From an uncultured Pseudomonadota bacterium (GTDB lineage Bacteria; Pseudomonadota; Alphaproteobacteria; JACZXZ01): a stretch of 64,000 nucleotides of DNA. The notes under the pieces are model-generated. The model did not search any database, was not told where the DNA came from, and saw nothing but the letters and a program-made list of their open reading frames with translations. Positions 2,205 through 17,973 of this stretch are shown here, piece after piece (position 1 is the stretch's first letter; each line of letters begins with the position of its first letter). The stretch lies in contig CAVVLJ010000004.1 of NCBI GenBank assembly GCA_963749075.1, positions 160,001 to 224,000 of the forward strand. The letters run 5' to 3'. Both the position numbers and the translations under genes were made by a program.

Positions 2205-2360
2205 CGGCGCACATGGCGGCCCAGGCCGGCGCGCGCGAATTGCGCCCGGCCTTCACGGCCCTCGCCCGCCGGACTATGATGAGCGCCGCGCAATCGCCGG
2301 GGATGCAGGAGGCCATCATGCCGAGGTTCCATTTCATGCTACCGTGCGTGGAGCGGCCTC

Positions 2361-3248
2361 GTGCAGCGGCCCGCTCCGCATCCGGCATTCGCCCTGCTCC
2401 GTTGTCCGGTCTGCCGGCTTGACTTAGCACCGCTAGGGCGCTCGCTCGCCTGCCGCAACGGCCACGGCTTCGATCTCGCGAAGTCGGGCTACGTCAACCT
2501 CATGGGGGGCGGTCACCGCCTTCCCGCTGCCGGCGGGGAAGGGCGGGGGCAGCTCGCACGGCGCGAGGCCTTCCTCGCGAGGGGCCATTTCGATGCCGTC
2601 GCGAAGGCGATCGCGCGCGAAAGCGCGGCGTCATGCGGCATCGCACGCGGCAGGCGGCTCGGCATCTTGGACGCCGGCTGCGGCAGCGGACATCACCTCG
2701 CCCGCGTCGCCGAGCGCCTTAGCGGCGGTGCAGGGATGCCCTGCCATGGCCTCGGGATCGACATCTCCAAGGAGGCGGCGCGCTCAGCCGCACGTCGCCG
2801 CAAGGGGCTGGCCTTTGCGGTCGCGGACATCTGGAGGGAGTGGCCAGTGCGCAGCGGCGCCGTCGATCTGCTGATCAGCGTCTTTGCGCCGAAGAACTTC
2901 GCGGAAATGGCGCGCGTGCTGGCGCCCGGCGGACTTCTCGCCATCGCCTATCCGGGGCCCGGGCACTTGGCCGAGCTCCGCCGTCCATTCCGCTTGATGG
3001 GCATGCGGGAGGACAAGGCCGCGCGCTATCTCGCCGAGGCAAGGCGGCATTTCCGCGAAACGCGATGCGAGGCGATCCAGCGCCGGATGGCGCTCGGCCG
3101 GGAGGAGGTGCTGGATGCGATCCTGATGGGACCCAACGCCGCGCACCTCCCGGCTGAGAGCATCCCCGAGTGGTCCGGGACGAGGCCCGTGACTTTCGCG
3201 GTCGAGCTGCTCTTCGCGCGGCAGCGCAGCGGTGCTAACGCAGCTTGA
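2361..3248 (+). CDS. rlmA: RlmA-like 23S rRNA m1G methyltransferase
   Basis: N-terminal Zn finger CPVC..C.NGH.FD.AK.GYVNL, SAM motif LDAGCGSG, G.DISK, PGPGHL.EL, MGPNA. Confidence 0.8.
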   Translation: MQRPAPHPAFALLRCPVCRLDLAPLGRSLACRNGHGFDLAKSGYVNLMGGGHRLPAAGGEGRGQLARREAFLARGHFDAVAKAIARESAASCGIARGRRLGILDAGCGSGHHLARVAERLSGGAGMPCHGLGIDISKEAARSAARRRKGLAFAVADIWREWPVRSGAVDLLISVFAPKNFAEMARVLAPGGLLAIAYPGPGHLAELRRPFRLMGMREDKAARYLAEARRHFRETRCEAIQRRMALGREEVLDAILMGPNAAHLPAESIPEWSGTRPVTFAVELLFARQRSGANAA

Positions 3249-3439
3249 GCCGCCGCCCCTCGGGCCTCCGGCGCACCAATGGCTCGCTTATGGTCCGCCT
3301 TCGGGCGGGTCGGCTTCAGTTCGGTCCTCATCATGGGACGGATTGTCTATCGAGCTCCGCACTGCAGGCCGCGATTGCGTCTTGGTTCGAATTTCTGCGT
3401 TGGGCGGCCTTGCGGACATAGGGCCGCTCCCCAGCATGG

Positions 3440-3555
3440 GCCGTTCATGGCACGGAAGCGAAGTTCAGCCGCGTCCGCTTGTCGGCCGCCGTTAAGGGGT
3501 GAGCGGATTGGGCACGGACATACTGCAATTGGTGCCGTTGACCCGTATCGGACAC
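3440..3555 (+). repeat. Tripartite boundary element, copy 1
   Basis: TGGCAC at 3448, GCCGCCGTT at 3485 (+37), TGACCC-gtat-CGGACA at 3539 (+91). Confidence 0.65.
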
Positions 3556-3855
3556 GCGGACTGCCAATAGCTGATCGTGAATCTCGTCCTCTGTCGCAGC
3601 CGCTGGCGGGTGCGGGGCGCAAGAGCTATTCCGAATGTCTCGGCCTGGAAGGCGGCGCAAGGGTGAGTCCTGCCGCGAGTACGCCGGCATGGTCTCCCGC
3701 CGGGAGAACCGGGCCGAGGAAAACTCGTAACAATTTCATTACGGATGCCGATGTAGTCTCCACAGCGTGCGCGATTTCCTGCTTTGGCCGAGATACCGAT
3801 TCTTCCCGGGCGAGAAAGTTGGCCAGGGCCGGGCCTGCGCGGTAAGGAGGCTACG

Positions 3856-4164
3856 ATGATATTTCGGATCGCACGCATCGCGACGCCGTCGATGGCGAAA
3901 TACGCCGCCGTCGCCGTTGCCGCTGTCATCGCGCTCTGGGGCTATGACGGTGCGACGTCCGCCCAGCAGCAGCTGGCACCGGCCGGGCGCACCGCCCGGC
4001 AGGCCTGCGTCGCCGACTACCGCGCGCTATGTCCGGGCGTGCATCCCGGCGGCGGCCGCATCATCGCCTGCTTCCGGCAGCATGCCGGCCAGCTGTCAAC
4101 GGGCTGCAAGGAGGCTCTGGCCGCCGCCAAGGCAGCACGGCCGAAGCCCCCGTCCGGCTCCTGA
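3856..4164 (+). CDS. Small secreted cysteine-rich repeat protein
   Basis: SD AAGGAGG 3844-3850; signal-like N-terminus; AC.ADY..LC.GV.PGGGRII.C......LS..C pattern. Confidence 0.75.
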   Translation: MIFRIARIATPSMAKYAAVAVAAVIALWGYDGATSAQQQLAPAGRTARQACVADYRALCPGVHPGGGRIIACFRQHAGQLSTGCKEALAAAKAARPKPPSGS

Positions 4165-4278
4165 GCAACCGCTCACGAGGAGAACCGCATCGTCGGGAGC
4201 GCCCACCTATTCCCGGTGGCCAGCGGCGGGATCGCCTTGCTCGCTTGAGATCACCAGGATGACGACGGCACGAACGCG

Positions 4279-4758
4279 TTACTTGCGGTCGTAGACGTTG
4301 ACGTAGGTGACCGAGTGGCCCTTGCCATCGCTCTCTGTACCGTGGCAACTCATCTTCTTGCGATCTACGGAGAGCGAGCAGCTCGAGCGGTCGCTGCTGC
4401 CGTCCGCGCTCGCAGAGACACTATCGAGTTTGGTCGCCGTGACGGTGAAGGCCGTCGTCGAGCCATCGGTCGAGCCGGGAATCGGGACAGGCTTACCGTC
4501 GCCGGCGCCGTTAAAAGACTGAACATGGCGCTCGCCCTGGGCGTCGATCACGGTCAAGGTCCACACCACACGCGCAGGATCGGCGCTCGTGACGTTGAGC
4601 ACCATCTCGCGCGGCACCGGTTCGCCCGCCGCGCTTGTCGACTCCGCTTTGTTCCAATGCCACTCGCCCACGAACGGGCCGGACTCGGCGGCAGGGGCGG
4701 CCGCCGACGCACACGTCGTCAAAGTCAGTATTCCGGCAACGATCAAGCGGTTTCGCAT
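4279..4758 (-). CDS. Hypothetical secreted protein (probable beta-rich fold)
   Basis: GAAAGAGGGA upstream; signal peptide MRNRLIVAG..AAAPAA; PFVGEWHWNKAES and terminal VYDRK resemble lipocalin-like small barrels. Confidence 0.65.
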   Translation of the reverse strand: MRNRLIVAGILTLTTCASAAAPAAESGPFVGEWHWNKAESTSAAGEPVPREMVLNVTSADPARVVWTLTVIDAQGERHVQSFNGAGDGKPVPIPGSTDGSTTAFTVTATKLDSVSASADGSSDRSSCSLSVDRKKMSCHGTESDGKGHSVTYVNVYDRK

Positions 4759-5014
4759 CGGACGTCCCTCTTTCTGCATCCTCGACACAGGCAGCCGATT
4801 GTGCCCGGCACCGGGTATTCGCGCCAGTAGGCACATGCAACGCGGGAGGCGCGGCGCATTTCGGCCCGACCGGGATACGGGCGAGGCCCGGTGTCCCCGC
4901 GGCGGGAAGGCGATCTCCGGCAACTCGGGAAAAAACAGAGTTTTGTAGCGAGTTGGCTCTAACCCCCGGATGAAGGATGTCGACCCCCGCTCGCTCATCG
5001 GCTCAAAGACCCCT

Positions 5015-5093
5015 CCACAACTTCCGGAGTTCGTCGCCGAGGCGACAGGGAGCAAATGGCACCGTTCTTCCCGCCATGACCCGAACCGGACAT
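5015..5093 (+). repeat. Tripartite boundary element, copy 2 (units 2 and 3)
   Basis: TCCGGAGTT at 5023 and TGACCC-gaac-CGGACA at 5077 (54 bp apart, the same spacing as copy 3). Confidence 0.6.
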
Positions 5094-5107
5094 GGAGCGG
5101 CACCCGT

Positions 5108-6100
5108 TCATTCGATCACCTCGTCGGCCTGTGCCAGCAGGATCGTCGGCATGGTGAGGCCGAGCGCCTTGGCGGCCTTGAGATTGATAACCAGCTCGAA
5201 CTTGGTCGGCTGCTGCACGGGAAGCTCGGCCGGCTTCGCTCCCTTGAGAATACGATCGACGTATCCTGCCGACCGGCGGAATATATCGAGGACATCCGGG
5301 CTGTATGACATCAGTCCACCCTCGACGACGAATTGCCGGTATACCGAGATGCCCGGCAGCCGGTTTTCCGCAGCGAGCTCAGCGACCATGTGCATATGGT
5401 CGAGCATGAACGGCTCGGGCCCGATGATCAGGCTCGTGCCTGGGGTGCGGGCCAGCGCCTCGATCGTCGTTTGCAGATCGTCGACCCTGTTAACGGTCGC
5501 CGGAACGAGTTCCATCGCAACCGATTGAGGCGTGGCTGCAAGTTCCCGCAGGAAATTGGTGTATTGCGGGATGAGCTTGGGATTGTACAGCAGGGCCGCG
5601 CGCTTGACCCCCGGTGCGGCATCCTTGATCAGCGCCGTCCATTTTCCGATCAGTTCCGGATCGATGAAGGTGAATCCGGTGATATTGCCGCCCGGGTGCC
5701 GTAGGCTGTCGACGAACCCCAAACCAACGGGATCTATGACCAGAGCACAGACGATCGGGATGGAGCGGGTCAGCGATTTGAGCTCCGCCACGACCGGCGT
5801 GCCATTGGCGAGGATGACGTCGGGCGCGAGTGCAATCAGTTCCTGCGCGTACCGGCGAACGAGATCAGCCTGGCCGGCGGCCCAGCGGTACGCGATACGG
5901 ATGTTCCGGCCGTCTTGCCAGCCAAGCGCCCGCAGGCCTTGCTGGAATGCGGCGATGCGCGGCTTGGAGGCAGGGTCGTTTTCGGCGACCGACATCAGCA
6001 CGCCCAGCTTGCGCAAGGCCTGAGGCTGCTGCGAGCGCGCCGCGAACGGCCAAGCAACCACAGCGCCGCCGAGCAAAGCGATGAGGTCGCGCCGCCTCAT
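5108..6100 (-). CDS. ABC transporter substrate-binding protein (ABC_sub_bind, 'MRRR...ADEVIE' family)
   Basis: MRRRDLIALLGGAVVAWP start, SL.HPGGNITG, GGLMSY, ILKGAKPAELPVQQPTKFELVINLK, ADEVIE end. Confidence 0.9.
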   Translation of the reverse strand: MRRRDLIALLGGAVVAWPFAARSQQPQALRKLGVLMSVAENDPASKPRIAAFQQGLRALGWQDGRNIRIAYRWAAGQADLVRRYAQELIALAPDVILANGTPVVAELKSLTRSIPIVCALVIDPVGLGFVDSLRHPGGNITGFTFIDPELIGKWTALIKDAAPGVKRAALLYNPKLIPQYTNFLRELAATPQSVAMELVPATVNRVDDLQTTIEALARTPGTSLIIGPEPFMLDHMHMVAELAAENRLPGISVYRQFVVEGGLMSYSPDVLDIFRRSAGYVDRILKGAKPAELPVQQPTKFELVINLKAAKALGLTMPTILLAQADEVIE

Positions 6101-7077
6101 TCGATCGCCTCGTCGGCAGTGCCGAGCAGAACCGGCGGGATGGTCACGCCGAGCGCCTTGGCGGTCTTGAGATTGATCACCAGCTCGAACTTGGTCGGCT
6201 GCTGGACCGGAAGATCGGCGGGCTTCTCGCCCTTGAGAATCCGGCCGGTATACACGCCAGCCAAACGGAACGAGTCAGCCAGGCTGGTTCCGTAGGTCAT
6301 CAAGCCACCCGCCATTGCGAACTCGCGCCAACCGAAGATCGCCGGGACGGCGTGGCGAAGCGCCAGCCCGGTGAGTTGCTCGGCCCTACTGGTGAAAAAC
6401 GGGTCCCCGCCGATGACGAGTCCGCCCATCCCTTGGCGGACGACGCTGGCGAATGCCGCTTCAATCTCCTTATCGGTGCTCGCATTTAGGATATCGAGCT
6501 GCACCCCAACGGCAAGGGCCGCTGTGCGCAGGTCGCTCACGATGGATTCGGCACGTGTGGGGCTGGTCGGGTTAACGAGCACGGCAATCGTTGTCGCCGC
6601 AGGGACCGCCTCGTGCAGCAGCTCCAGCCGCTTCGGCCCTAGCTCCACATCGAATACGCTCACGCCGGTAATGTTGCCGCCCGGTCGGTTAAGGCTTGCG
6701 ACAAGTCCTGTTTCGACCGGATCGAACCCGCCCACGAAGACAATTGGTATTGTGGCGGTTGCTGCCTTTGCCGCCCGTGCACCAGCGCCATTTGTCGCAA
6801 TCACGGCGACCCGATGACGAACAAGATCCGCCGCGAGCGCGGGCAGTCGATCATATTGATTCTCCGCGAAGCGGTATTCGATCGCCACGCTCCGGCCGTC
6901 GATATAGCCGGCTTCTTGCAGGCCCCGGCGGAACGCGGCCAAGAGGTGTGGGGCCTCGCCAGGCCCTCTGGTGCCGAGAAACCCGACCACCGGCATCGCC
7001 GTCTGCTGCGCGCGCGCCGCGAGTGGCCACCCGACTGCTACGCCACCGAGCAGCGCGATGAAATTCCGGCGCCTCAT
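6097..7077 (-). CDS. ABC transporter substrate-binding protein, tandem paralogue
   Basis: Same motifs (SLNRPGGNITG, PADLPVQQPTKFELVINLKTAKALG, ADEAIE); ATGA overlap with the downstream paralogue. Confidence 0.9.
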   Translation of the reverse strand: MRRRNFIALLGGVAVGWPLAARAQQTAMPVVGFLGTRGPGEAPHLLAAFRRGLQEAGYIDGRSVAIEYRFAENQYDRLPALAADLVRHRVAVIATNGAGARAAKAATATIPIVFVGGFDPVETGLVASLNRPGGNITGVSVFDVELGPKRLELLHEAVPAATTIAVLVNPTSPTRAESIVSDLRTAALAVGVQLDILNASTDKEIEAAFASVVRQGMGGLVIGGDPFFTSRAEQLTGLALRHAVPAIFGWREFAMAGGLMTYGTSLADSFRLAGVYTGRILKGEKPADLPVQQPTKFELVINLKTAKALGVTIPPVLLGTADEAIE

Positions 7078-7120
7078 TCGATCACCTAGTCCGTTCGGGC
7101 GAGCAGCTCGGGCGCGACAC
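7074..7120 (-). pseudogene. 3'-terminal remnant of a third substrate-binding paralogue
   Basis: Reads VAPELLARTD*VIE* (GAG>TAG), matching the family end LLA.ADEVIE*; overlaps the next ATG. Confidence 0.7.
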
Positions 7121-7229
7121 GGGGCGCCTTATCGAACCGCTCACAGAGAGGGCTTGAACCATAGCAGGAGGTGCCCGTCATGAATAGACGCGGCATATAA
7201 TTCGCTCCCCGTGACCGTGCGCGGCTTAC

Positions 7230-7346
7230 GTCTGTTCGTGGCACCTTGCGGCGACCCCAGCAGCATGCGGGCGCGTCCGGAGTTGAAGGAATAGCTGGCG
7301 CGCCGCTGACGTGGTCGCATGGCCCAGGATGACCCCTTTCGGACAT
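7230..7346 (+). repeat. Tripartite boundary element, copy 3
   Basis: TGGCAC 7239, TCCGGAGTT 7276 (+37), TGACCC-cttt-CGGACA 7330 (+91). Confidence 0.65.
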
Positions 7347-7658
7347 TTGCTGATTCAAATAGGGGCCCGTCGCATGGCGACCTATCTGGCCAAGGCGTAG
7401 CCGGACGAGTCTTGTTCTCTACCAAAGGCGGTCGACTGACCCGACATCTTTTATATGTTTGATACTCGGCCGGCATTGGTCGCTGTTGGCCGAGTCAGTT
7501 GACCTGGTTCGTCTCGCGCCAGATAACTCATGACGGGCGGCTTCCCTGACACAAGCCGTGTAAGACAAACCCGCTATGTCGGACCGCGCGTCCAGGGCGA
7601 TGGGCAATTGGGCGACCAAGACGTTCTGCATCGAACGGCTTCGGCAAAAGCCGCAGCG

Positions 7659-7808
7659 GCCGTAAGCCATACTAGGCCCGAGCCCCGCTATCCCCGCCAA
7701 TCTCTTGGCCGTGAAGAACGGTTCGAACGTGCCATCGATCACCTCACGTATCATCCCGACGCCACTATTCGCAACGAACATGGTGTCGTAGTCCCCGGCG
7801 CCGACTCC
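7659..7808 (-). pseudogene. Degenerate fragment of a histidine kinase HATPase domain
   Basis: ANSGVGMIREVIDGTFEPFFTAK..IAGLGPSMAYG aligns by eye with TDSGAGMAPEIQERVFEPFFTTK..SGLGLSMVYG of the intact kinase at 32991. Confidence 0.6.
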
Positions 7809-8100
7809 ATGAATCAAAGTGGGCACAGTGGACAATAGTTTCCTCATCCGATTAAGGATCATCGCGTGCACAAGGGGCAAATTGCCAAGTCGCCGCCGCG
7901 CGTGCTATATTTAACAATTCGTGTTGACCGGCAGGGTGGGGACGGACATGCGGTCAGTATCACCGCGGACAAGGCGGTGGCGCTCGGGTCTCCGATCATT
8001 CAGACATGGATTCCGATGTGACGGCACGGCGCTCATCGAACGGGGGCGTCAACAAGAATATTAAGTGCAAGGAATTTGAATACTCGCTAGGGGGGATACC

Positions 8101-11100
8101 GTGATCGGGTGGATATCCAGCCACTGGAGACGGGCAGCGTTCCGAATTCCGGCTGTCACCGTCCTGTTTTCAATTTTCACCGGGCTGACCGCTGGAGGAG
8201 TCGCCTACTACATTGCAAGAACGAGCTTAATCGATCTGGCCAAGTCGCGGGTCGCCCTGGTGCGCACCGAGCGCGCCCGGGAAATCACCCAGTTCATCGA
8301 GTCAATCCGCAATCACTTGGCGTCGGTCGCGGCTGCCCCTCGGGTAAAGCAGGACTTGCAAAATCTTGCACGCTTTATGGCCGGCATGAATCAAGTTGAC
8401 CGTAAGGCCTGATCGACAGTTACACAAAGGATAGTTCGTTTTCCAAAGCGTCCCGCTCGGCGCTTTATGATTCTGGCGATGGATCCAAATATACGGCGCT
8501 GCATAGGGAAATTCATGAGAAGTATCTGAATTACGTGCATCTTTTGAAGCTCCACGATCTCATGTTGGTCGATTCCGAGGGCAATGTCGTCTATTCCGTC
8601 GCGAAGAGCGCGGATTTCGGATCGAATTTGCTTTCCGGGGCAAATCGCGAAAGCCTCGCCTCCAAGACATTTCAAAAAGCTCTCGCTGCCACGTCGCAGG
8701 ACCAGACCGTCGTTTCCGATATGGAACTCTCCGATAAGCGTCCGACAATGTTCATGGGCCAGGCCGTTCAAGATGCGTCGGGAAAGAGACTGGGCGCGGT
8801 CCTGTACGAAATAAACCCTTCCACGTTTACTGAGATTTTATCTGACACGATGAACCTTGGCGAAAGCGGTGAAGTCTACCTGGTTGGCCCCGACCTGACG
8901 CGGCGAAGCGGATCGCGATTTTTCAAAGCGCAGATGCTTGTCGATCGAGTCGACACGGAACCCGCTCGCAGGGCCGCCGCCGGAGTATCCGGGACCATCA
9001 TTACGACCGACTACAGGGGCATCCCGGTTATTTCATCGTTCGCTCCTTTCGACCTAATGGGGATCAGGTGGAGCATCATTTCCGAAGTCGATCTTGCGGA
9101 GGCTTTGGCGCCGCTGGCTAAGATGGCGGCGGCAACGGCCGTTTCGGTGTTGATCGTCATTCTCCTTATCTCGGCGGGAGGCTATTTCAGTGCCCGCCGC
9201 ATTAGCCGAGTACTTAGCGGATTCATGGAGAACATGCGTGACCTGGCGCAAGGAAACACCGAGGTCGAGATAGCTCACGATGCGAAGACGGAGGAAGGAA
9301 GACAGATTTCCGCCACGCTGCACCAGTACCGCGAGAGTCTGTTGGCGAGGCAGAGCCTTATCGCGGATTTAAATGATAGACACGCTCAATTCGCTGAAAC
9401 GCTCGAGCGAGCGCCCATCGGCGTCCTTGTCCTCACCGTGAAAAACAAAGTGTTGTTCATCAATGGACCGGGCGCGCGGATCCTCGAACGAGACGCGAGT
9501 CGGATGGTCGGTGAAAATTTTTTCATTGAGCAACTGGCGGTCGATGCGCAGGAGGCGCAAGACCTCATCGTTCAAGTGCGTCGTCTCGGGTTCGTGAGAG
9601 ACCGGCAAATCACTGTACGCGTCAACGGGCTGAAAGAATTATCGGTGTCTTGCTTCCTGGCCTCGTTCCAGGACACGCCGGCCTATATTGTTTGGTTTGA
9701 CGACATTACCAACTCGCTGGCGACAAAAAGCGAACTCGAGCGTCTGAGCACACAGTTCGTCGCGCTCATGGAAGCGAGCCCTGCCATGATAACGATCCGG
9801 GGGCGCGACCTTCGACTCCTCGCCGCCAGTCAGAGTGTAGCAAATGACTGTAACGTCCCGTCGTGGCGTGATCTGGTGGGCAAAAGCGTCGAGGAGCTTT
9901 GGCCGGACCTGGAAGTGTCCGAAGCGGAGCGCGCTTCATGGGCGGACATCGTCGCCGGCCGTGCCGCGGAACATACTGGCGAAATGGAGTTGAGGCCGGG
10001 AACCTGGTATTCGGCAAGACGGATCCCAATCAAGAATAAAAGGGGAGAAATTGAAGGTGTATTGAGCATCGGAACCGACATAACGCTGTACAAGCAGCAG
10101 CAGCGGGCGACTGATTTGGCGCTCGCAGAAGCGACCGAGGCCAAAGCACGATTGGCGAAGGAACATGGCCTCGTCTCTTCGATCCTTGACGCGGTTCCGA
10201 TCCCCATTTTCTACAAAGACGCCGAGACACGGTATCTCGGCGCCAATCGCGCTTTCGAAGAAATGCGGGGCGTGCGACGTGCCGACATGATCGGGAAGCG
10301 CCTATCAGAAATCGGAATCACACCCGAGTTCCGTCTGGAGTCCTTACAGCGTCAGGCCGAGGATGCAACGCGTGGTGTTGTGATTCGCGACGAGCGGCAA
10401 ATGCGTCTTGCAGACGGGCAGGATCACATCGTGCTCTTTCACTTGCAGGCATTCAAGGGAGCGGACGGCCAGCCGGCAGGCACGGTCGGGGCATTTGTGG
10501 AGGTGACGGAACTCAAGAATACTCAGCACGAGCTCGAAAAGGCGACCCGTGCGAAGAGCGAATTCCTGGCGTCGATGAGTTACGAAATCCGTACCCCGAT
10601 GAATGCGATCATAGGAATGGCGCATCTGGCGCTGCGAACCGAGCTCACCCCGCGCCAGAAGGATTACCTAACGAAGATACGCGCGTCGGGCGAGCACCTC
10701 CTCGGCATAATCAACGACATCCTTGATTTCTCGAAAATCGAAGCGGGCAAGCTGACCATCGAGACCGTCGATTTCGACTTCGAGGGTGTGCTGGATACCG
10801 TGAGCACCCTCATTTCGGAAAAGGCCGCGGCCAAGGGACTGGAGTTCATTTTTGACATTGCGCCGTCGATTGCGCCGTCGCTGAAAGGCGACTCCTTGCG
10901 GCTCGGGCAGGTGCTTATCAACCTTTGCAACAACGCCGTCAAATTCACCGATAGCGGGGAGATCATATTGCGGGCGCGGGTCGCCGAAAACGCACCTGAT
11001 ATGCAAAAGCTGCGTTTTGAGGTCACCGACACCGGCATCGGCCTCACGCAGGAGCAGGCCGGCCGCCTTTTCCAGGCTTTCGAGCAGGCAGACGGCTCGA

Positions 11101-12755
11101 CGACACGGCAATATGGCGGAACCGGCCTCGGCCTCGCCATCTCCAAGCGCCTTGTCGAGCTGATGGGCGGTGAGATCGGAGTTACAAGCGAGCCGGGCAA
11201 GGGCAGCACCTTTTGGTTTACCGCTGTCTTCGGGAAGGCCGAGGGTGAGCCGAAGCGCCTGCCCTTGCCGGATATGCGCGGGCGGCGCACGCTCGTGATC
11301 GACGACAACGAGCTTTCGCGTGAGGTGCTCGCCGATTTGCTCGTCTCGCTGACCTTCGATGTAGACCAAGCCAGCGGGGGTATCCAGGGCATCGAAATGG
11401 CGCAGGCGGCCATTCGTGCCGCCAATCCCTATGAGATCGCGCTGGTGGATTGGAAGATGCCGGGAATGGACGGCATCGAGACCGGTAGGCGCCTTCGCGC
11501 ACTCGCGCCCGCCAGCGGCCTGCCGCGTTTGGTGATGGTGACGGCCTACGGCCGCGAGGAGGCGTTCAAGCAGGCGAAAGAGGATTTCGCGGCGGTCCTG
11601 GTGAAGCCGATCAGCCCTTCGACCTTGTTTGCGACCGCCCTCCAGTTGGTCGGGCTCGGTGAGTCCGATCGTGGGTCCGCAAAGCTGCTCGCGCCCTCGC
11701 CAACGCCCGCCGATCTCGGTCTGGGTGGCCTACGCATTCTGCTCGCCGAAGATAACGAGCTGAACCGGGAGGTTGCGGTCGGTTTACTCGACGGCACTGG
11801 CGTTTCCATAGACATCGCAGAGAACGGCGCCGTAACAGTCGAAAAAGTGGAGCAGCAGCCGTATGACATCATCTTGATGGACATGCAGATGCCGGTAATG
11901 GACGGGCTCGAAGCGACTCGATCCATCAAGGCGGACGAGCGGTTCCGCGAGTTGCCGATCATTGCAATGACTGCAAACGCAATGGCTGCCGACCGCGAAC
12001 GCTGCCTCGCCGCAGGCATGAGCGACCACATTGCGAAACCGATCGATCCCGACGAGCTATTCCGGGTTATCGCGCGCTGGGCCAAGCGCGACGGCACGGG
12101 CAGCGTCATTGCGAAACCAGCGCCCGTCGCAACCGGACGGCAAAGCGGTGGTTCCCCTGACCTGCCGGTCATCGAGGGTATAGATACGCATACCGGTCTG
12201 GCGCAAACCGGCGGCAAGCCGGAACAATACGCCAACGTCCTCCTGCGCTTTGCCGAGCGGCACGCGGACAACGCGGCGGAGATCACGGCTGCGCTCAACG
12301 CCGGCGACAACTCGTTGGCACAGCGGCTGGCGCATACACTGAAGGGCCTAGCCGCCACAATTGGCGCTAGCCAGGTATCGGAAGCTGCGCGGCGAGTCGA
12401 GCTGGGCTTAAAAAACGGCGAACGGGTCGCTGGCGCGATCGACAATCTGGCGAGTTGTCTCCCGCAGGTCATCGCTGGGATCCATGCAGCCTTTGCCGCA
12501 ACGGTTACCCCTTCCGCCGGCTCCATCGCAAGCGCGAGCGATTGCGCGGAGCAATTGCGGGTCCTCAGGAAACTGCTCGAGCATGATGACGGAGATGCGG
12601 CCAACTTCATGGCCCGGATCGCTCCCGGCCTTAGCGGCATACTGACCGGGGACGAAATAGCCTCCCTGTCGCGCACCGTCGGCGAATTCGATTTTTCAGC
12701 GGCGCTCATCACGCTCGATCGCGTGTGCCGTCGCCTGTCACTGGAGTCCGCATGA
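8101..12755 (+). CDS. Multi-sensor hybrid histidine kinase (TM-Cache-TM-HAMP-PAS x3-HisKA-HATPase-REC-REC-HPt); frameshift near 8409; H-box His replaced by Tyr
   Basis: 8101-8412 and 8535-12755 join with one added base at GCC^TGATC; LGESGEVYLVG (Cache), KSEFLASMSYEIRTPMN, NAVKFT, DTGIG, GGTGLGL, DWKMP, DMQMP, AHTLKG. Confidence 0.85.
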
Positions 12756-12756
12756 T

Positions 12757-13851
12757 ATGAGCGCAATCGATCGCAAATGCGTGCTTATCGTCGATGATTC
12801 GCCGGAAAACATTTCGATTGCGACGACCGTCCTTCGCGACGCGTATCGCATCAAGGTCGCAACAAACGGGCCTCGCGCGCTCGAGTTGGCAGAGGGCGAG
12901 GATAAGCCGGACCTGATCCTGCTTGATATAGTCATGCCCGACATGGATGGTTATGAGGTGTGCCGCCGCCTAAAGGCAAATCCGGCCGTGGGGAGCATCC
13001 CCGTCATTTTCCTGAGCGCTCAAAGCTCGGTCGAGGAGGAAACGCGCGGCTTCGAAGTGGGTGCCGTCGATTATATCCATAAACCGTTCAGCCCGCCCAT
13101 TATGCGCGCCCGCGTGCGAGCCCACCTGTTGGTGAAGGAAGCGCGGGATTTTCTGCACGAGCAGAACGAAATACTCGAACGAAAGGTGCAACAGCGCACC
13201 CTTGAACTCTCGACCATACAGGACGCGACGATCGCCGCGATGGCCTCGCTGGCCGAGACGCGCGACAACGAAACCGGAAACCACATCCGCCGCACGCAGC
13301 ATTACGTCAAGGCATTGGCGCTCAGGCTCAAAGATCACCCGCGTTTTCGCGACGCGCTCACGCCGGAGACAATCGAGCTGCTGTTCAAGTCCGCTCCGCT
13401 TCACGATATCGGCAAAGTGGGCGTTCCCGATTCTATCCTGCTGAAACCGGGGCGACTGACCGCTGACGAATTCGAAGTGATGAAGCAACACACGACCATC
13501 GGCCGGGACGCTATAGAGGCGGCCGAGGCTGGACTGAATATTGAGGTTTCGTTCCTGCGTTTCGCGAAGGAGATCGCCTATTCGCATCAGGAAAAGTGGA
13601 ATGGCTCGGGTTATCCGCAAGGAATCGGCGGTGACGATATTCCGATTTCGGCCCGGCTGATGGCAGTAGCCGACGTCTACGACGCGCTGATCAGCCGCCG
13701 CGTGTATAAGGAGCCCATGACTCACGAGGCCGCCGTCGAGTTCATTACTACGGGCTCCGGCAGCCATTTTGACCCCGACATGGTCGAGGCCTTTCTCAAT
13801 ATGGCCGACGAGTTTTACGCGATATCGCAACGCTACGCCGACCAACACTGA
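12757..13851 (+). CDS. Response regulator with HD-GYP phosphodiesterase domain (RpfG-like)
   Basis: REC (VDD, DIVMPDMDG, KP), ETGNHIRR, LHDIGK, HQEKWNGSGYP, ADVYDAL.SRR.YK. Confidence 0.92.
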   Translation: MSAIDRKCVLIVDDSPENISIATTVLRDAYRIKVATNGPRALELAEGEDKPDLILLDIVMPDMDGYEVCRRLKANPAVGSIPVIFLSAQSSVEEETRGFEVGAVDYIHKPFSPPIMRARVRAHLLVKEARDFLHEQNEILERKVQQRTLELSTIQDATIAAMASLAETRDNETGNHIRRTQHYVKALALRLKDHPRFRDALTPETIELLFKSAPLHDIGKVGVPDSILLKPGRLTADEFEVMKQHTTIGRDAIEAAEAGLNIEVSFLRFAKEIAYSHQEKWNGSGYPQGIGGDDIPISARLMAVADVYDALISRRVYKEPMTHEAAVEFITTGSGSHFDPDMVEAFLNMADEFYAISQRYADQH

Positions 13852-13983
13852 CAGCCGGATCGCGCCCTGCTCCTGGTCTTCTGTGTCGTTCCACCGGGTA
13901 CCGAGCACACCACTCCGCCAGAGCATGCGACGGCCCTTACCCGCACCGTCATGGCCTTTGCCACCCTATTTTGATCCGCATAG

Positions 13984-14532
13984 TTGGCCGACTATACGGC
14001 GGCGTGTCTGTCTCGCTCGTCGATCGCGGACGGCTTCAACGGCTTCGTGGTTCACCTGGCCAACCATGACGTGATGCTCTGGGCGGTCTCTCGGTCGCCG
14101 CTCGCGAAGCTGCCGGCGTACAAGCGGCGAATGGGCTGGAGCTTTCCCTCGGCGTCCTCGCTCGCCAGCGACTTCAATTGCGACTTCAATATCTCCTTCA
14201 TCGAAGAGCACCAGCGCGGGGGAGTCATTGAATACAACCGTGAGTTCGGCGGCGACGCGATGGACGCGATGTCGGTCCCGGAGCCTGTCGCCCAGTTCGC
14301 GGCCATGTGTGCAACTGACGCGCACACATACTCGCGCGATAGGCCGGGCATAAGCGCGTTCGTGCTCGAGGACGGCGTCGTCCATCACACCTATCCCGCC
14401 TATGCGCGCGGAGTGGATGGCCTCTGGGGCATGTACCAGTGGCTCGACCGCGCCCCTAAGGGGCGCAACGAGAAAGGCGTCCGGTGGCGCCGCCGTGACG
14501 AGTACGCCAACCAAGGCACGGACGCGCGCTGA
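13984..14532 (+). pseudogene. DUF899 thioredoxin-like protein, 5'-truncated and decayed
   Basis: ADGFNG..HLANHDV..AVSR.PL.KL..YKRRMGW, HTY..YARG, LDRAPKGRNE; N-terminus absent and CxxC eroded to CLSR. Confidence 0.7.
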
Positions 14533-14667
14533 GGCGCGGCTGCAGGGCGATGAGTGTCCGATCCTCAGCGCGGTTGAGGTGGAGTGGTCGAGCAGCGCGG
14601 GAAAGCAACAAGGACTCGAACGAAACGAACTATGAGTTGGTGAGCGGAGTGGCGCAAATCAACCGAA

Positions 14668-14769
14668 TGACCGCTGCTGGCACATTTCCGACGATCCGAT
14701 CGCCGCGTTGGAAGTCTGCAGCTGGGTCGCAAGCGGAAATTCAAACTGCGACACTCGACCCGTGCCATG
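14668..14769 (+). repeat. Tripartite boundary element, copy 4 (third unit truncated)
   Basis: TGGCAC 14678, TCTGCAGCT 14715 (+37); after ...GTGCCATG at about +90 the sequence switches to GC-rich backbone. Confidence 0.5.
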
Positions 14770-14829
14770 CCGCTCGCTCTCGCGGGCTCGGGCGACTCTC
14801 GCGGCCGCGCTCATGTCCGCGCAGCATCG

Positions 14830-17800
14830 CTACAGCAGCTTGAGCTGCCTCTCCTCCGGTTTCCGCCGCGCCGGCTCGGCGCGCTGGTGCTTGACGAGCT
14901 CGCTCTCGATGTCGGCGAGGAAGGGCGAGGGAGCGAGGCTCTTCACGTGGCCGCGCCACAGCCGCTTTGCCGCACGGCTGAGGATGAGGCGGTCCTTGGC
15001 GCGCGTCATGCCGACGTAGAGGAGGCGGCGCTCCTCCGCCGCGGCGTCGTCGTCGAGCCCGTTCCAATGGAGCGGCAGGAGCCCGTCCTCGAGCCCGGCG
15101 ATGAAGACGACGGCGAATTCCAAGCCCTTTGCCGCGTGGAGTGTTAGGAGCGAGACGCGGTCGGCGCGCGGGTCCCAGAAGTCGCTCTCGGCGGCAAGCG
15201 CCACCGCGTCGGCGAAGCGCCGGCCGTCGCCGCCTGCGGCCTCGGCGAGGAGCGAGAGGCGTCTCAGCGCCGTCTCCAGAGCCGCGGCATGGGGCGCCTC
15301 CTTGCGGCGGCGGAGACGCTCGGCCGCCGCCGCGAGCCGCGTGGGGAGGAGGGCCGGGTCGCCGCCCCCGCCCTCGCCTTCTCCCTTGGCGGCGAGCTCG
15401 GCCAAGAGGCTCGCGACCCCGGGCTGGGCCGCGAGCGGATCGTGCGAGCTCCGCTTGAACGGCATGCCTGAGCGGGCGAAGGCCTCGACGAAGGCGGCCA
15501 ACTGGGCGTCGGTGCGGTAGAGCACGGCGAAATCCGCGAAGGAGAGGTTGGCGCTTCCGGCGCCGGCGGCGCGGCCGCTGTCGATCGAGAAGAAGCTGTG
15601 CCCGCCGATGAGCCGCTCGATCGTCGCCACGGCGAACTCGGCCTCGGCGGCCTCCGTGGCTGCCGTGTGGATGGCGATGCGCTCGTGCATCTCGCGCACC
15701 AAGGCTCCGAGCGGCCGGCTCTCCGGCGATGCCGCGAGGAGCTGGGCCGAGGCCGCGACGATGGTGCCGCTCGAGCGGTAGTTGCGCGCGAGCGCCACGG
15801 TGGCGGCGTGCGGATAGTCCGCCTTGAAGTGCTGGAAACACGTGGCATCGGCGCCGCGGAAGCCGTAGATCGCCTGGTCGGGATCGCCGATCGCGCATAG
15901 ATCGCCGTCGCCCGGTGCCAAGAGCGTCAGCAGGCGGTATTGCTCTCTATCCACGTCCTGGAACTCGTCGACCGAGACGGCGCGCCAGCGCGCGCGGTAG
16001 GCGCGGGCGAGCTCGGCATCGCTCTCGAGCGCCTTCACCGCGAGGCCCACGAGATCGTCGAAGTCGACCCAGTCGCGCAGCGCCAGGGCCTCCCGGTAGG
16101 CCGCAAGTGCGGCCGCGACATCGGCGCTCGGCGCTGCCGCACCGCGCTTCGCTTTCGAGATGGCGCCGATGAGGCGCCCGGCCTTATGGCCCGAGCAGGC
16201 GAGCGCCTCGGCGAGGGCGCCGCGGCACTCCGCCTCGCTCGCCAGGCGGAAGCCGCGGTGGAGGCCGGCAGCACTGCCGTGCTCGCGCAAGATCGCGAGG
16301 CCGAGCGAATGGAAGGTGTGGATGGCGATCTCGGGCGCGGCGTCGGGGACGAGCCGGGCCAGCCGCTCGCCGAGCTCGGCGGCGGCGCGGCGCGTGAACG
16401 TGATGGCGAGGCAGGCCGCCGCCGGCACGCCCCGCTCGGCGATGAGATGGGCGATGCGGTGGGTGAGCGTGCGCGTCTTGCCCGAGCCGGGGCCGGCGAC
16501 GATGAGGAGCGCTCCCCCGAGCGCTCCGGCCGCGGCGCGCTGGTCGGCGTCGAGGCCCGCAAGAATGTCCGCTCGCGGAGCGCTCTCCTCGAGAGAGCCG
16601 CGCTGCTCGGCGGCCGGCGCCTCAGCGCGCGGCTGGCTGCGCGGGTCCGCTTGCTTGGCCGCCTCCTTGCGCTTGGCACCGGGCGCCTCGAAGAGGAGGC
16701 CGCCCGCGGTGCGCCGCTTGAGCTCGGCCTTCCCGAAGAGGCGGATGACGCCGTACTCGCCGTCGTAGCCCGCCTCGCGGATCACGGCGCCCTTACGCAG
16801 GCGCTGGATCGCCTCGGCAAGGAGCGAGGAGTCGGCGCGCGCGATGTCCTCGAGCGGCACCGATTGCAGGATGGCGAGCTCCGGGCCGAGGGCGCCGATC
16901 AGCCGCTCGTAATGGCGCTCGACGGTGCGGCTCGCCGGTCCGACGGACGCGAGCTCCGAGAGCACCTCGGGGAGCGGCACCAGGTTGGCGACCTCGCCCG
17001 CCTTGGGCGGCGGCAGCGCCTCCGCCTCGCTGCGGTCGGCCAGCGCCTCTACCCGGTGGAGCACGCCGACCGTGACGGGCGCGCCGCACACCGGGCAGCG
17101 CCCGCCGGCCGCCAGCGTCTCGCCGGGCGAGAGGCGGGCGTTGCACTTGCGGTGGCCGTCGAGGTGGTACTTGCCCTCCTCGGGGAAGAACTCGACGGTG
17201 CCGACGTAGCCCGGCCCGCCCTCGAGTGCGGCGCGCATGGCGAAGTAGTCGAGCGGGCAGTCGAAGAGCGTCGTCTCGCGCCCGAGCTTGGCCGGCGAAT
17301 GGGCGTCGGAATTGGAGACCAGGCGGTAGCGGTCGAGGAAGGAGAGCCGCCAGTTCATCGGCGGGTCGGAGGAGAGGCCGGTCTCCACGGCGAAGATGTG
17401 GTCGGCGAGGTCGCCGTAGCACTCGACGATCGAATCGAAGCCCGATTGCGAGCCGAGCACGGCGAACCACGGCGTCCAGATATGCGCCGGCACGAGGTAG
17501 GCGCCGGGGCCGGCCTCGAGGACGATCTCGAGGAGATGGCGCGAATCGAGCCCCAGGATGGGACGGCCGTCCGACGCGATATTGCCGATGCGCGCGAGCC
17601 GTGCCGCGATGCGCTCGGCCACCTCGAAGTCGGGCGCATAGAGCAGATGGTGGATTTTGCGCGTGAGCGGGCCCTTCTTGTAGATGGTCGAGATCTCGAC
17701 CGAGAGCATGAAACGCACGGGCGTGCGGCAGGCGGGCGGCAGCAACTCGGCGAGGCCCCGCTCGCTCTCGTCCGCGAGGCGGAAGAGCCCGGGCTCGGCC

Positions 17801-17973
17801 GGCACGAGCTTCTCCCTGAGCTCGGCGCGCCAGACGGGGTGGGTGAAATCGCCGGTGGCGACGACCGCGATGCCCTTGCGCCGCGCCCAATAGGCGAGGT
17901 GCTCGAGATCGCAATCCCGGCTCGTGGCGCGCGAGTATTTGGAATGGACGTGGAGATCGGCGTGGAAGCGCAT
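14830..17973 (-). CDS. Endonuclease Q (PHP + Zn ribbon) fused to a UvrD/PcrA-like SF1 helicase
   Basis: HADLHVHSKYSRATS, PAHIWTPW, SNSDAHS, GKYHLDGHRKC..CPVCG, GYDGEYG; helicase motifs AGPGSGKT, VDEFQD, GDPDQAIYGFRG, NYRS, TLHAAKGLEF, EERRLLYVGMTRA. Confidence 0.9.
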   Translation of the reverse strand: MRFHADLHVHSKYSRATSRDCDLEHLAYWARRKGIAVVATGDFTHPVWRAELREKLVPAEPGLFRLADESERGLAELLPPACRTPVRFMLSVEISTIYKKGPLTRKIHHLLYAPDFEVAERIAARLARIGNIASDGRPILGLDSRHLLEIVLEAGPGAYLVPAHIWTPWFAVLGSQSGFDSIVECYGDLADHIFAVETGLSSDPPMNWRLSFLDRYRLVSNSDAHSPAKLGRETTLFDCPLDYFAMRAALEGGPGYVGTVEFFPEEGKYHLDGHRKCNARLSPGETLAAGGRCPVCGAPVTVGVLHRVEALADRSEAEALPPPKAGEVANLVPLPEVLSELASVGPASRTVERHYERLIGALGPELAILQSVPLEDIARADSSLLAEAIQRLRKGAVIREAGYDGEYGVIRLFGKAELKRRTAGGLLFEAPGAKRKEAAKQADPRSQPRAEAPAAEQRGSLEESAPRADILAGLDADQRAAAGALGGALLIVAGPGSGKTRTLTHRIAHLIAERGVPAAACLAITFTRRAAAELGERLARLVPDAAPEIAIHTFHSLGLAILREHGSAAGLHRGFRLASEAECRGALAEALACSGHKAGRLIGAISKAKRGAAAPSADVAAALAAYREALALRDWVDFDDLVGLAVKALESDAELARAYRARWRAVSVDEFQDVDREQYRLLTLLAPGDGDLCAIGDPDQAIYGFRGADATCFQHFKADYPHAATVALARNYRSSGTIVAASAQLLAASPESRPLGALVREMHERIAIHTAATEAAEAEFAVATIERLIGGHSFFSIDSGRAAGAGSANLSFADFAVLYRTDAQLAAFVEAFARSGMPFKRSSHDPLAAQPGVASLLAELAAKGEGEGGGGDPALLPTRLAAAAERLRRRKEAPHAAALETALRRLSLLAEAAGGDGRRFADAVALAAESDFWDPRADRVSLLTLHAAKGLEFAVVFIAGLEDGLLPLHWNGLDDDAAAEERRLLYVGMTRAKDRLILSRAAKRLWRGHVKSLAPSPFLADIESELVKHQRAEPARRKPEERQLKLL

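Follow-up and report, generated by a model that had tools for sequence, protein, structure and literature searches.

A lineage-specific family of short non-coding repeats marks homology breakpoints in uncultured soil Alphaproteobacteria

An undescribed family of non-coding repeats, about 118 nt long and known only from a single genus of uncultured soil Alphaproteobacteria, is represented by one intact and two diverged copies in a 64,000-nt stretch of contig CAVVLJ010000004.1 (assembly GCA_963749075.1), hereafter called the window and numbered from its first letter. The repeats keep a constant orientation and lie at the borders of swapped DNA blocks, which suggests, short of proof, a site at which DNA is joined. 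Our preferred interpretation, held tentatively, is that they are DNA modules whose boxes are sites of breakage and joining, recognised by protein and acted on in trans.

A sequence-only reading of the window had proposed four copies of an element composed of three short units at fixed distances: TGGCAC (unit 1), a 9-nt unit 2, and TGACCC-N4-CGGACA (unit 3). The elements concerned are listed below, SBP1 and SBP2 being two tandem genes for substrate-binding proteins (SBP).

e1, 3436..3554, plus strand: diverged element with the 91-nt box spacing of the family; left end ATGGGCCG-TTCA-TGGCAC at 3436-3453 (+), unit 2 with 6 of 9 letters at 3485-3493 (+), right box TGACCC-GTAT-CGGACA at 3539-3554 (+).
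e2, 4978..5093, plus strand: diverged element with a possible left end ATGTCG at 4978; exact unit 2 at 5023-5031 (+) and exact right box TGACCC-GAAC-CGGACAT at 5077-5093 (+), which ends 15 nt before the SBP1 stop codon (5108).
e3, 7230..7346, plus strand: intact member of the ~118-nt repeat family (BLAST; nhmmer E=1.3e-30), 153 nt upstream of the SBP2 start (7077); left box GTCTG-TTCG-TGGCAC at 7230-7244 (+), unit 2 TCCGGAGTT at 7276-7284 (+), right box TGACCC-CTTT-CGGACAT at 7330-7346 (+).
e4, 14669..14692, plus strand: the claimed fourth copy; a head-like GACCG-CTGC-TGGCAC-ATTT-CCGAC only, not significant.

The positions given in that reading are all correct (TGGCAC at 3448, 7239 and 14678; unit 2 at 3485, 5023, 7276 and 14715; unit 3 at 3539, 5077 and 7330), and three of its four copies are real. 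These three are not equivalent, as one is an intact family member and the other two are diverged. Unit 2 precedes unit 3 by 54 nt in e1, e2 and e3, and TGGCAC precedes TGACCC by 91 nt in e1 and e3; the proposed geometry thus holds in these two, but TGGCAC is missing from e2 (3 of 6 letters match at the expected offset). The 16-nt unit 3 occurs exactly at its three positions, far beyond chance: with one mismatch allowed, shuffled sequences average 0.25 occurrences and none of 100 reached the window's 3. The 5.49-Mb genome holds 4 exact matches and none to the reversed control pattern. The fourth copy found no support. It lacks unit 3, matches unit 2 at 6 of 9 letters, and has neither a BLAST match to the other elements (or to families 2 and 3, described below) nor a match to the nhmmer family profile. 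Its sole further feature is a 14/16 match, at 14669-14692, to the 24-nt head GTCBG-N4-TGRCMC-N4-CRGAC. Since TGGCAC is so common (2677 occurrences in the genome, both strands), e4 is within chance.

The distribution of the family was examined in 41 related genomes, six from the window's genus (G000 to G005) and 35 from other genera. G000 is the window's own genome (5.49 Mb, 96% complete), in which the window sits on contig C4; the genomes are fragmented metagenome-assembled genomes (MAGs), and G004 is 79% complete. With window 2300-8600 as BLAST query, the e3 region (7230-7348) matched many loci at 81-90% identity over ~106 nt, all of them within the genus (G000, G001, G002, G003 and G005); there was no match in G004 or in the 35 genomes of other genera. 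A dedicated search found 26 places in five of the six genomes of the genus. In the own genome, a profile search identified a partial copy on C22 and five full copies:

C4:167231 (= e3)
C21:514245
C21:516194
C21:517450
C16:332049

When 185,579 species genomes were scanned for exact matches to a 22-nt core pattern, 7 loci in three alphaproteobacterial records were recovered, and a metagenome scan gave 30 loci. Altogether, about 45 well-kept copies are known from several genomes and metagenomes. Plasmid, phage and viral sequence collections yielded no match to the family, and we found no published description of such an element in the open-access literature that was searched.

The element has sharp limits. 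Its left end reads (AT)GTCYG-N4-TGGCAC and its right end TGACCC-N4-CRGAC(AT), with the outer pentamers of the two boxes forming mutually inverted repeats and the internal box TCCGGAGTT placed 54 nt before the right box. As read from the sequence, the right box is itself an 18-bp imperfect palindrome, ATGNCC-N6-GGNCAT. The spacing noticed in the window is kept elsewhere: in 31 of the 34 copies having both ends, which also served for the target-duplication and flank-sharing tests described below, TGGCAC and TGACCC are 91 nt apart. In the family alignment (43 sequences from the own genome, relatives and soil metagenomes, with an 18-sequence MAG subset used in some tests), conservation is highest around unit 2, which is also the stretch with which the metagenome copies were fished.

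The diverged elements e1 and e2 escape the nhmmer family profile even at E<=10, and their interiors resemble the family at the random level (32% and 32-36% identity, respectively). We scanned the own genome for unit 3 at no fewer than 9 of 11 letters accompanied by the other two units at family offsets. This recovered e1, e3, two intact C21 copies and two new diverged elements:

C16:689688, minus strand: diverged element, from the box scan of the own genome.
C2:73269, plus strand: diverged element with its right box 15 nt ahead of the stop codon of a PF04392 gene, the family to which SBP1 and SBP2 belong.

TGGCAC stood at the true offset for 7 anchors, against 3 of 1345 anchors at control offsets. 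In e1, e2, G000:C16:689688 and G000:C2:73269 the boxes occur at family offsets within 3 nt, while the interiors are 25-36% identical to those of e3 and the intact copy C21b; over all pairs compared, diverged and intact, interior identity ranges between 14% and 49%. Boxes and spacing are thus kept while interiors are not, and neutral decay cannot produce the pattern. These data bear on the view that the elements have no function and are decayed leftovers of local duplications, their boxes being shared through descent and chance. The profile search that misses e1 and e2 is consistent with this view, as is the location of all three window copies within 3.9 kb beside a duplicated SBP pair. We consider it highly improbable, however, as units preserved at 12/12 and 9/9 letters next to interiors of random identity are incompatible with neutral decay, and the large number of well-kept copies speaks against it as well.

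Two further repeat families share the regions occupied by the ~118-nt family (family 1). Family 2 (about 105-125 nt, 8 further matches) opens with the same left box followed by N4-CGGAC, carries additional GTCYG/CRGAC pentamers and, on several contigs, is no more than about 1 kb away from family-1 copies. Family 3 (about 90-105 nt, 9 further matches) occurs at the e3-orthologous site, where it comes immediately after the left box, and also upstream of a solitary right box. Their loci are:

Family 2: L111:1144-1283 (G003:C137), L108, L110, L018, L080 and L087; partial copy at G000:C21:518322-518369.
Family 3: L058:12563-12767 and 9204-9290 (G003:C28); L095, L059 and L097.

At least three co-occurring, undescribed repeat families thus mark plastic regions in this uncultured soil lineage.

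In support of the sequence-only reading, comparison with relatives revealed homology blocks that start or stop at unit 3 and unit 1; such borders are what a joining site would give. The block carrying a gene for a Cys-rich secreted protein is alignable between the window and G005:C280 exactly from the GACCC of e1 (3540), the left sides being unrelated, and the SBP block following e2 is alignable with G003:C28 from GACCC. A block with a DUF4189 gene on C21 of the own genome is common to G003:C149 and G004:C345 from the hexamer on, including the N4 and the outer box, while to its left these two contigs carry other DNA; G002:C55 also shares this block, by BLAST coordinates only. Metagenome locus L068 agrees with C21b in its left flank and in the element itself, but has a different block to the right. 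The left box behaves alike. The flank upstream of SBP2, through GTCTG-TTCG-TGGCAC, is orthologous in the window, G003:C28 and G002:C263, but beyond TGGCAC the three loci differ, the window continuing into family 1, G003:C28 into family 3 and G002:C263 into family 2. L091 (family 1) and L110 (family 2) likewise have a common left flank and left end. Among the 34 copies, 7 pairs share the left flank only, 12 the right flank only and 2 both, compared to 0 of 1122 in the control. Finally, a pattern for a minimal site, with the left box fused to the outer right box, was matched 5 times in the five relatives and never in the control. Four of these are family-2 heads; the fifth is a junction with a hybrid-looking hexamer, TGGCCC:

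G003:C149: 24-nt stretch GTCGG-AGCT-TGGCCC-GAAC-CAGAC, a candidate empty or minimal site.

From these patterns we infer protein recognition, break-and-join chemistry and a trans-acting enzyme. On this interpretation, e3 is an intact member, and e1 and e2 are old, diverged members, of a lineage-specific superfamily of short non-coding modules, whose boxes, as double-stranded DNA, would be recognised by an enzyme supplied in trans, either a transposase or a site-specific recombinase. The enzyme would break and rejoin DNA at or beside the hexamers. Repeated joining at the boxes would explain why modules come to lie between unrelated genes and share one orientation within local arrays, why left and right flanks combine independently of each other, and why the interiors of families 1, 2 and 3 can follow one left end at the same genomic site. 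If the boxes are indeed joining sites, they would represent a new way of gathering and reshuffling accessory genes in Alphaproteobacteria.

A number of observations weigh against this interpretation. Neither a transposase nor a recombinase is tied to the elements. The own genome has 9 matches to the tyrosine recombinase family PF00589, none of them on C4, in line with the earlier remark that the window has no recombinase, and none within 30 kb of the genome's arrays; for the C21 array, the closest match is at a distance of about 32 kb. No PF00589 match was found on the 10 array-bearing contigs of G001, G002, G003 and G005, although these contigs are short and the evidence weak, and the 96%-complete own genome has no match to the Y1 transposase family (PF01797). 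Target-site duplications are absent from the 34 copies scanned at boundary offsets -3 to +6 for k of 2-9 (best 2/34 at k=4; 0/34 at k>=6). Genome-wide, CGGACAT and related words occur at 0.95-1.08 times expectation, showing no enrichment, and half-sites give 16 and 19 matches compared to 13 and 23 for controls. At 5-7 bp plus GG, the inverted repeat formed by the ends is short, and its covariation is not significant. Most of the 12 right-only pairs are paralogous SBP 3' ends and partly reflect an ancestral SBP-plus-element unit rather than exchange; the single candidate empty site in G003:C149 may be a coincidence; partial copies break at many internal points, as in plain decay; and the MAGs are fragmented, with loci that are related and not independent.

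The breakpoint pattern could also be explained by mobile miniature elements or by mosaic repeats, the genes between them not being cassettes. Under the latter explanation, which we consider unlikely, the repeats are passive, either selfish or relic, have no dedicated enzyme, and act only as sites at which RecA-dependent or microhomology-mediated recombination and deletions take place; flanks are thereby shuffled and fragments left behind. Sharing of one flank is the product expected from a crossover inside a repeat, and the many partial copies with varied internal breakpoints, the truncated SBP gene fragments adjoining elements, the lack of an enzyme and the lack of motif enrichment all agree with it. 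What passive repeats leave unexplained is the combination of exact boxes and spacing with random interiors in e1, e2, C16:689688 and C2:73269, as well as the switches of interior exactly after TGGCAC or before TGACCC. Moreover, the shared end measures about 15 nt, which is short for RecA-dependent exchange.

Family copies sit between unrelated genes, at 5' and 3' gene ends alike. In arrays, copies are spaced 0.6-2.7 kb apart with one or two genes between neighbours; these genes face both ways, while element orientation is constant irrespective of gene orientation. On the 10 contigs with at least two copies, 15 of 16 further copies match the direction of the first, a count that overstates independence inasmuch as some of these contigs may be orthologous. 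The description of the elements as same-oriented, non-coding punctuation between unrelated gene blocks is supported. Representative contexts are:

G003:C28: genes for a TRAP transporter binding protein, malic enzyme, an amidohydrolase, a methyltransferase and cytochromes.
Own C21: IS5-type fragment, dehydroquinase II, DUF4189 and DUF3455.
G003:C2: GGDEF and EAL genes, SBP fragments.

The C16 copy has flanks that are not conserved in the relatives. On C21, a fragment of an IS4/IS5-type transposase (DUF4096) at L061:5640-6068 (G000:C21:513639-514067) lies 180 nt from the first element of the array; related copies are scattered in G003.

Such arrays invite comparison with integrons. In a true gene-cassette system, the genes between sites would be mobile and a trans-encoded site-specific recombinase would act at the boxes. 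In favor of this possibility, the arrays are co-oriented and successive sites enclose one or two unrelated genes. The DUF4189 block takes its own N4 and outer box along and has different partners on its left, the junction falling at the hexamer; the Cys-rich block likewise starts at a box in two genomes. Like attC sites, including those of integrase-less clusters (CALIN), the elements fall within the 60-140 nt range, have conserved, mutually inverted end boxes with a spacer separating the outer from the inner box, vary in the middle, form co-oriented arrays, separate unrelated small genes and coincide with block borders. They also comprise near-identical as well as heterogeneous versions, which is likewise the case for attC sites of chromosomal integrons. 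The differences are considerable, however. The ends, (AT)GTCYG and CRGAC(AT) in the 43-sequence alignment and in the window, replace RYYYAAC and GTTRRRY, so that the elements are not attC sites, as already supposed from the window; no single-strand hairpin forms beyond shuffled controls; no integrase or other tyrosine recombinase adjoins any array; genes between sites face both ways, and elements also occur singly. Contigs from three soil DNA runs, all short and with paralogous joints, showed no bridging, circular or empty form, and a single candidate minimal site was found, the other four pattern matches being family-2 heads. We thus judge a true cassette system to be very unlikely, and rate no higher its specific version, namely a non-attC site-specific recombination that assembles cassettes without an integron integrase, with crossover at TGRCMC and the 24-nt stretch in G003:C149 as a recombined minimal site. 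Were the cassette reading true, the system would be a functional analogue of integrons in the one large proteobacterial class reported to lack them: in the survey of PMC4889954, integrons, In0 elements and CALIN were absent from all 243 alphaproteobacterial genomes covered, a lack described there as puzzling. The alphaproteobacterial host is a further difference.

Other known systems resemble the repeats in part. Miniature inverted-repeat transposable elements (MITEs), such as the Correia elements of Neisseria and the Tn3-derived inverted-repeat miniature elements (TIMEs), are likewise short, non-coding, multi-copy, intergenic and lineage-restricted, with subfamilies sharing ends but not interiors; their terminal inverted repeats may have a counterpart in the GTCYG...CRGAC ends. 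For TIMEs, it has been proposed that pairs of copies could mobilise the DNA between them (PMC4133298), and pairs of the present elements could do likewise. The present elements differ in their inverted ends of only 5-7 bp plus GG, in lacking target-site duplications, and in a strict co-orientation within arrays that random transposition would not be expected to give; no parent insertion sequence was identified, a transposase flanked by these ends not having been searched for systematically. Repetitive extragenic palindromes and the mosaics they form in enterobacteria (REP/BIME), as well as the RIME of rhizobia, are also short repeat families in intergenic mosaics, often beside genes for transporter binding proteins (for example, malE-malF and hisJ-hisQ). 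REP units are palindromes of ~35 nt forming stable stem-loops, whereas the modules described here are ~118 nt long, have fixed internal spacing and no such stem-loop, and the genome has no REP-associated (RAYT) or other Y1 transposase; the comparison with RIME and BIME was made by description, not by sequence. A last parallel is provided by attachment (att) direct repeats left by tandem accretion of integrative elements, in which co-oriented repeats separate unrelated cargo. The island in the window has a 54-bp repeat of its own that duplicates the 3' end of a helicase gene (see below). The 118-nt modules, in contrast, are not ends of target genes, do not lie at the island borders and occupy many unrelated loci. 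On a modest reading of the data, the repeats mark fixed points at which homology between strains is interrupted, and are neighbours of an expanded set of orphan binding-protein genes.

The connection with these genes raised the question of a cis-acting role. A PF04392 gene adjoins 6 of the 18 MAG copies. In three of the six, the outer box lies 14-16 nt past the PF04392 stop codon (two of these genes being a 3' fragment only); in the other three, the gene start is 108-153 nt from the left end of the element. The distance from outer box to SBP stop is the same with the element in either orientation. PF04392 3' fragments of 28-76 codons beside family-1 copies, at L060:4525-4695 and 7433-7660 (G003:C2) and L024:1561-1644, are truncated on the side away from the element. 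One could thus envisage the module as an expression element affecting mRNA stability, insulation or transcription of its neighbours, notably orphan PF04392 genes. We regard this as distinctly unlikely, and grade in the same way the related view in which the module is co-transcribed or binds a regulator or nucleoid protein, the boxes acting as operator or processing sites. The recurrent distances to PF04392 starts and stops, the palindromic right box, and the position of the e1 box at the head of a conserved block upstream of the Cys-rich gene would suit such a role. Against it, copies flank both ends of functionally unrelated genes and keep one orientation whatever that of the genes, no promoter-like or terminator-like site is present at any element, and there is neither fold nor covariation, as detailed below.

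RNA folding gave z-scores of -1.5 to +0.2 relative to shuffles (four copies, both strands), and folding as single-stranded DNA -1.37 to +1.26 (e1, e2, e3 and an intact copy, both strands). The consensus fold of the 43 sequences amounts to only -4.8 kcal/mol with a covariation term of -0.08; the covariation terms with 18 sequences are +0.24 and +0.26. The ends GTCYG...CRGAC pair in register (67.9% of cells, compared to 30-49% when slid), although the inverted part comprises just 5-7 bp plus GG and pairing in the end helix of shuffled sequences reaches 65.1%, with 63 of 500 shuffles attaining the observed value. Rfam returned no match at E<=1, either in window 2500-15500 or in six loci with intact copies of families 1-3; the suggested check for a known non-coding RNA family thus came back clear. 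A riboswitch, a small RNA and a signal recognition particle-like RNA were rejected given no Rfam match, no fold beyond shuffles and no covariation.

The family shows no coding signal either: variation by codon phase, summed over minor alleles, is 76, 79 and 74, without 3-periodicity. All three plus-strand frames and one minus-strand frame carry stops in most copies. The remaining two minus-strand frames are open in 15 and 16 of 18 copies. The frame with its start at the outer-box ATG is uninterrupted in 15 of them; the corresponding small peptide (MSxxGH...) was ruled out by the lack of codon periodicity. No sigma-54 or sigma-70 promoter and no terminator was detected at the elements. The sigma-54 consensus is TGGCAC-N5-TTGC; the family has one base (C) before TTGC instead of five, and TTGC is wholly absent in e1 and e4. 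A replication-strand bias was also dismissed, as GC skew around 13 copies is weak and bears no constant sign relative to element orientation.

The region of the window in which the elements lie is a lower-GC island of 11.6 kb. The supposition that the elements delimit this island was not upheld: its borders are formed instead by 54-nt imperfect direct repeats (76% identity). Genes and repeats are as follows.

2361..3248, plus strand: RlmA-type methyltransferase gene, left neighbour of the island.
3224..3277: left direct repeat, a defunct duplicate of the helicase gene's final 13 codons and stop (minus-strand reading).
3853..4164, plus strand: gene for a Cys-rich secreted protein, as judged from its translation.
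4279..4758, minus strand: gene for a beta-rich secreted protein with a signal peptide; no Pfam family above threshold.
5108-6100 (SBP1) and 6097-7077 (SBP2), minus strand: tandem of PF04392 substrate-binding protein genes (E 1e-48 and 6e-43).
8535-12755, plus strand: hybrid histidine kinase.
12757-13851, plus strand: REC/HD-GYP regulator.
13984-14532, plus strand: DUF899 fragment.
14819..14872: right direct repeat, the true 3' end of the helicase gene.
14830-17973, minus strand: PHP/UvrD-type helicase gene.

The left repeat overlaps the end of rlmA. On the minus strand, it translates as RRRPEGRRLKLR, compared to RRKPEERQLKLL for the right repeat. A duplicate of this kind is the usual mark of insertion at the 3' end of a gene. 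In four of the five relatives, the region homologous to the helicase gene begins at window 14820-14830; the contig of the remaining relative starts within the gene. No DNA match to rlmA was found in the five relatives, nor does rlmA lie beside their helicase genes (at four of five loci, flanks reach about 1.5 kb past the gene end). Since rlmA has no counterpart there, an empty site between rlmA and the helicase gene could not be mapped.

Within the island, the conserved upstream block of the Cys-rich gene that begins at the e1 right box measures 310 nt and is matched by an 87% block in G005:C280; the beta-rich gene lies in an 88% block found in G001:C191. A second copy of the Cys-rich gene is present in the own genome with 96% identity (window 3809-4271 versus G000:C17:251647-252110), which indicates a probable recent duplication or transfer within the genome. 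The segment 7003-7117, which spans the SBP2 start, shares 74% identity with the junction between SBP2 and SBP1 (6026-6140), so that a stub of the 3' end of a third binding-protein gene persists upstream of SBP2. GC content falls to 0.54-0.58 at window 8000-11000, around the start of the histidine kinase gene, compared to about 0.70 in the flanking backbone. Lastly, a motif of ~31 nt located just upstream of a conserved gene on C16 (L033:2081-2112; G000:C16, about 332637-332668) recurs at dozens of places in all five relatives with 90-97% identity, and could be a separate high-copy repeat or a shared regulatory site.

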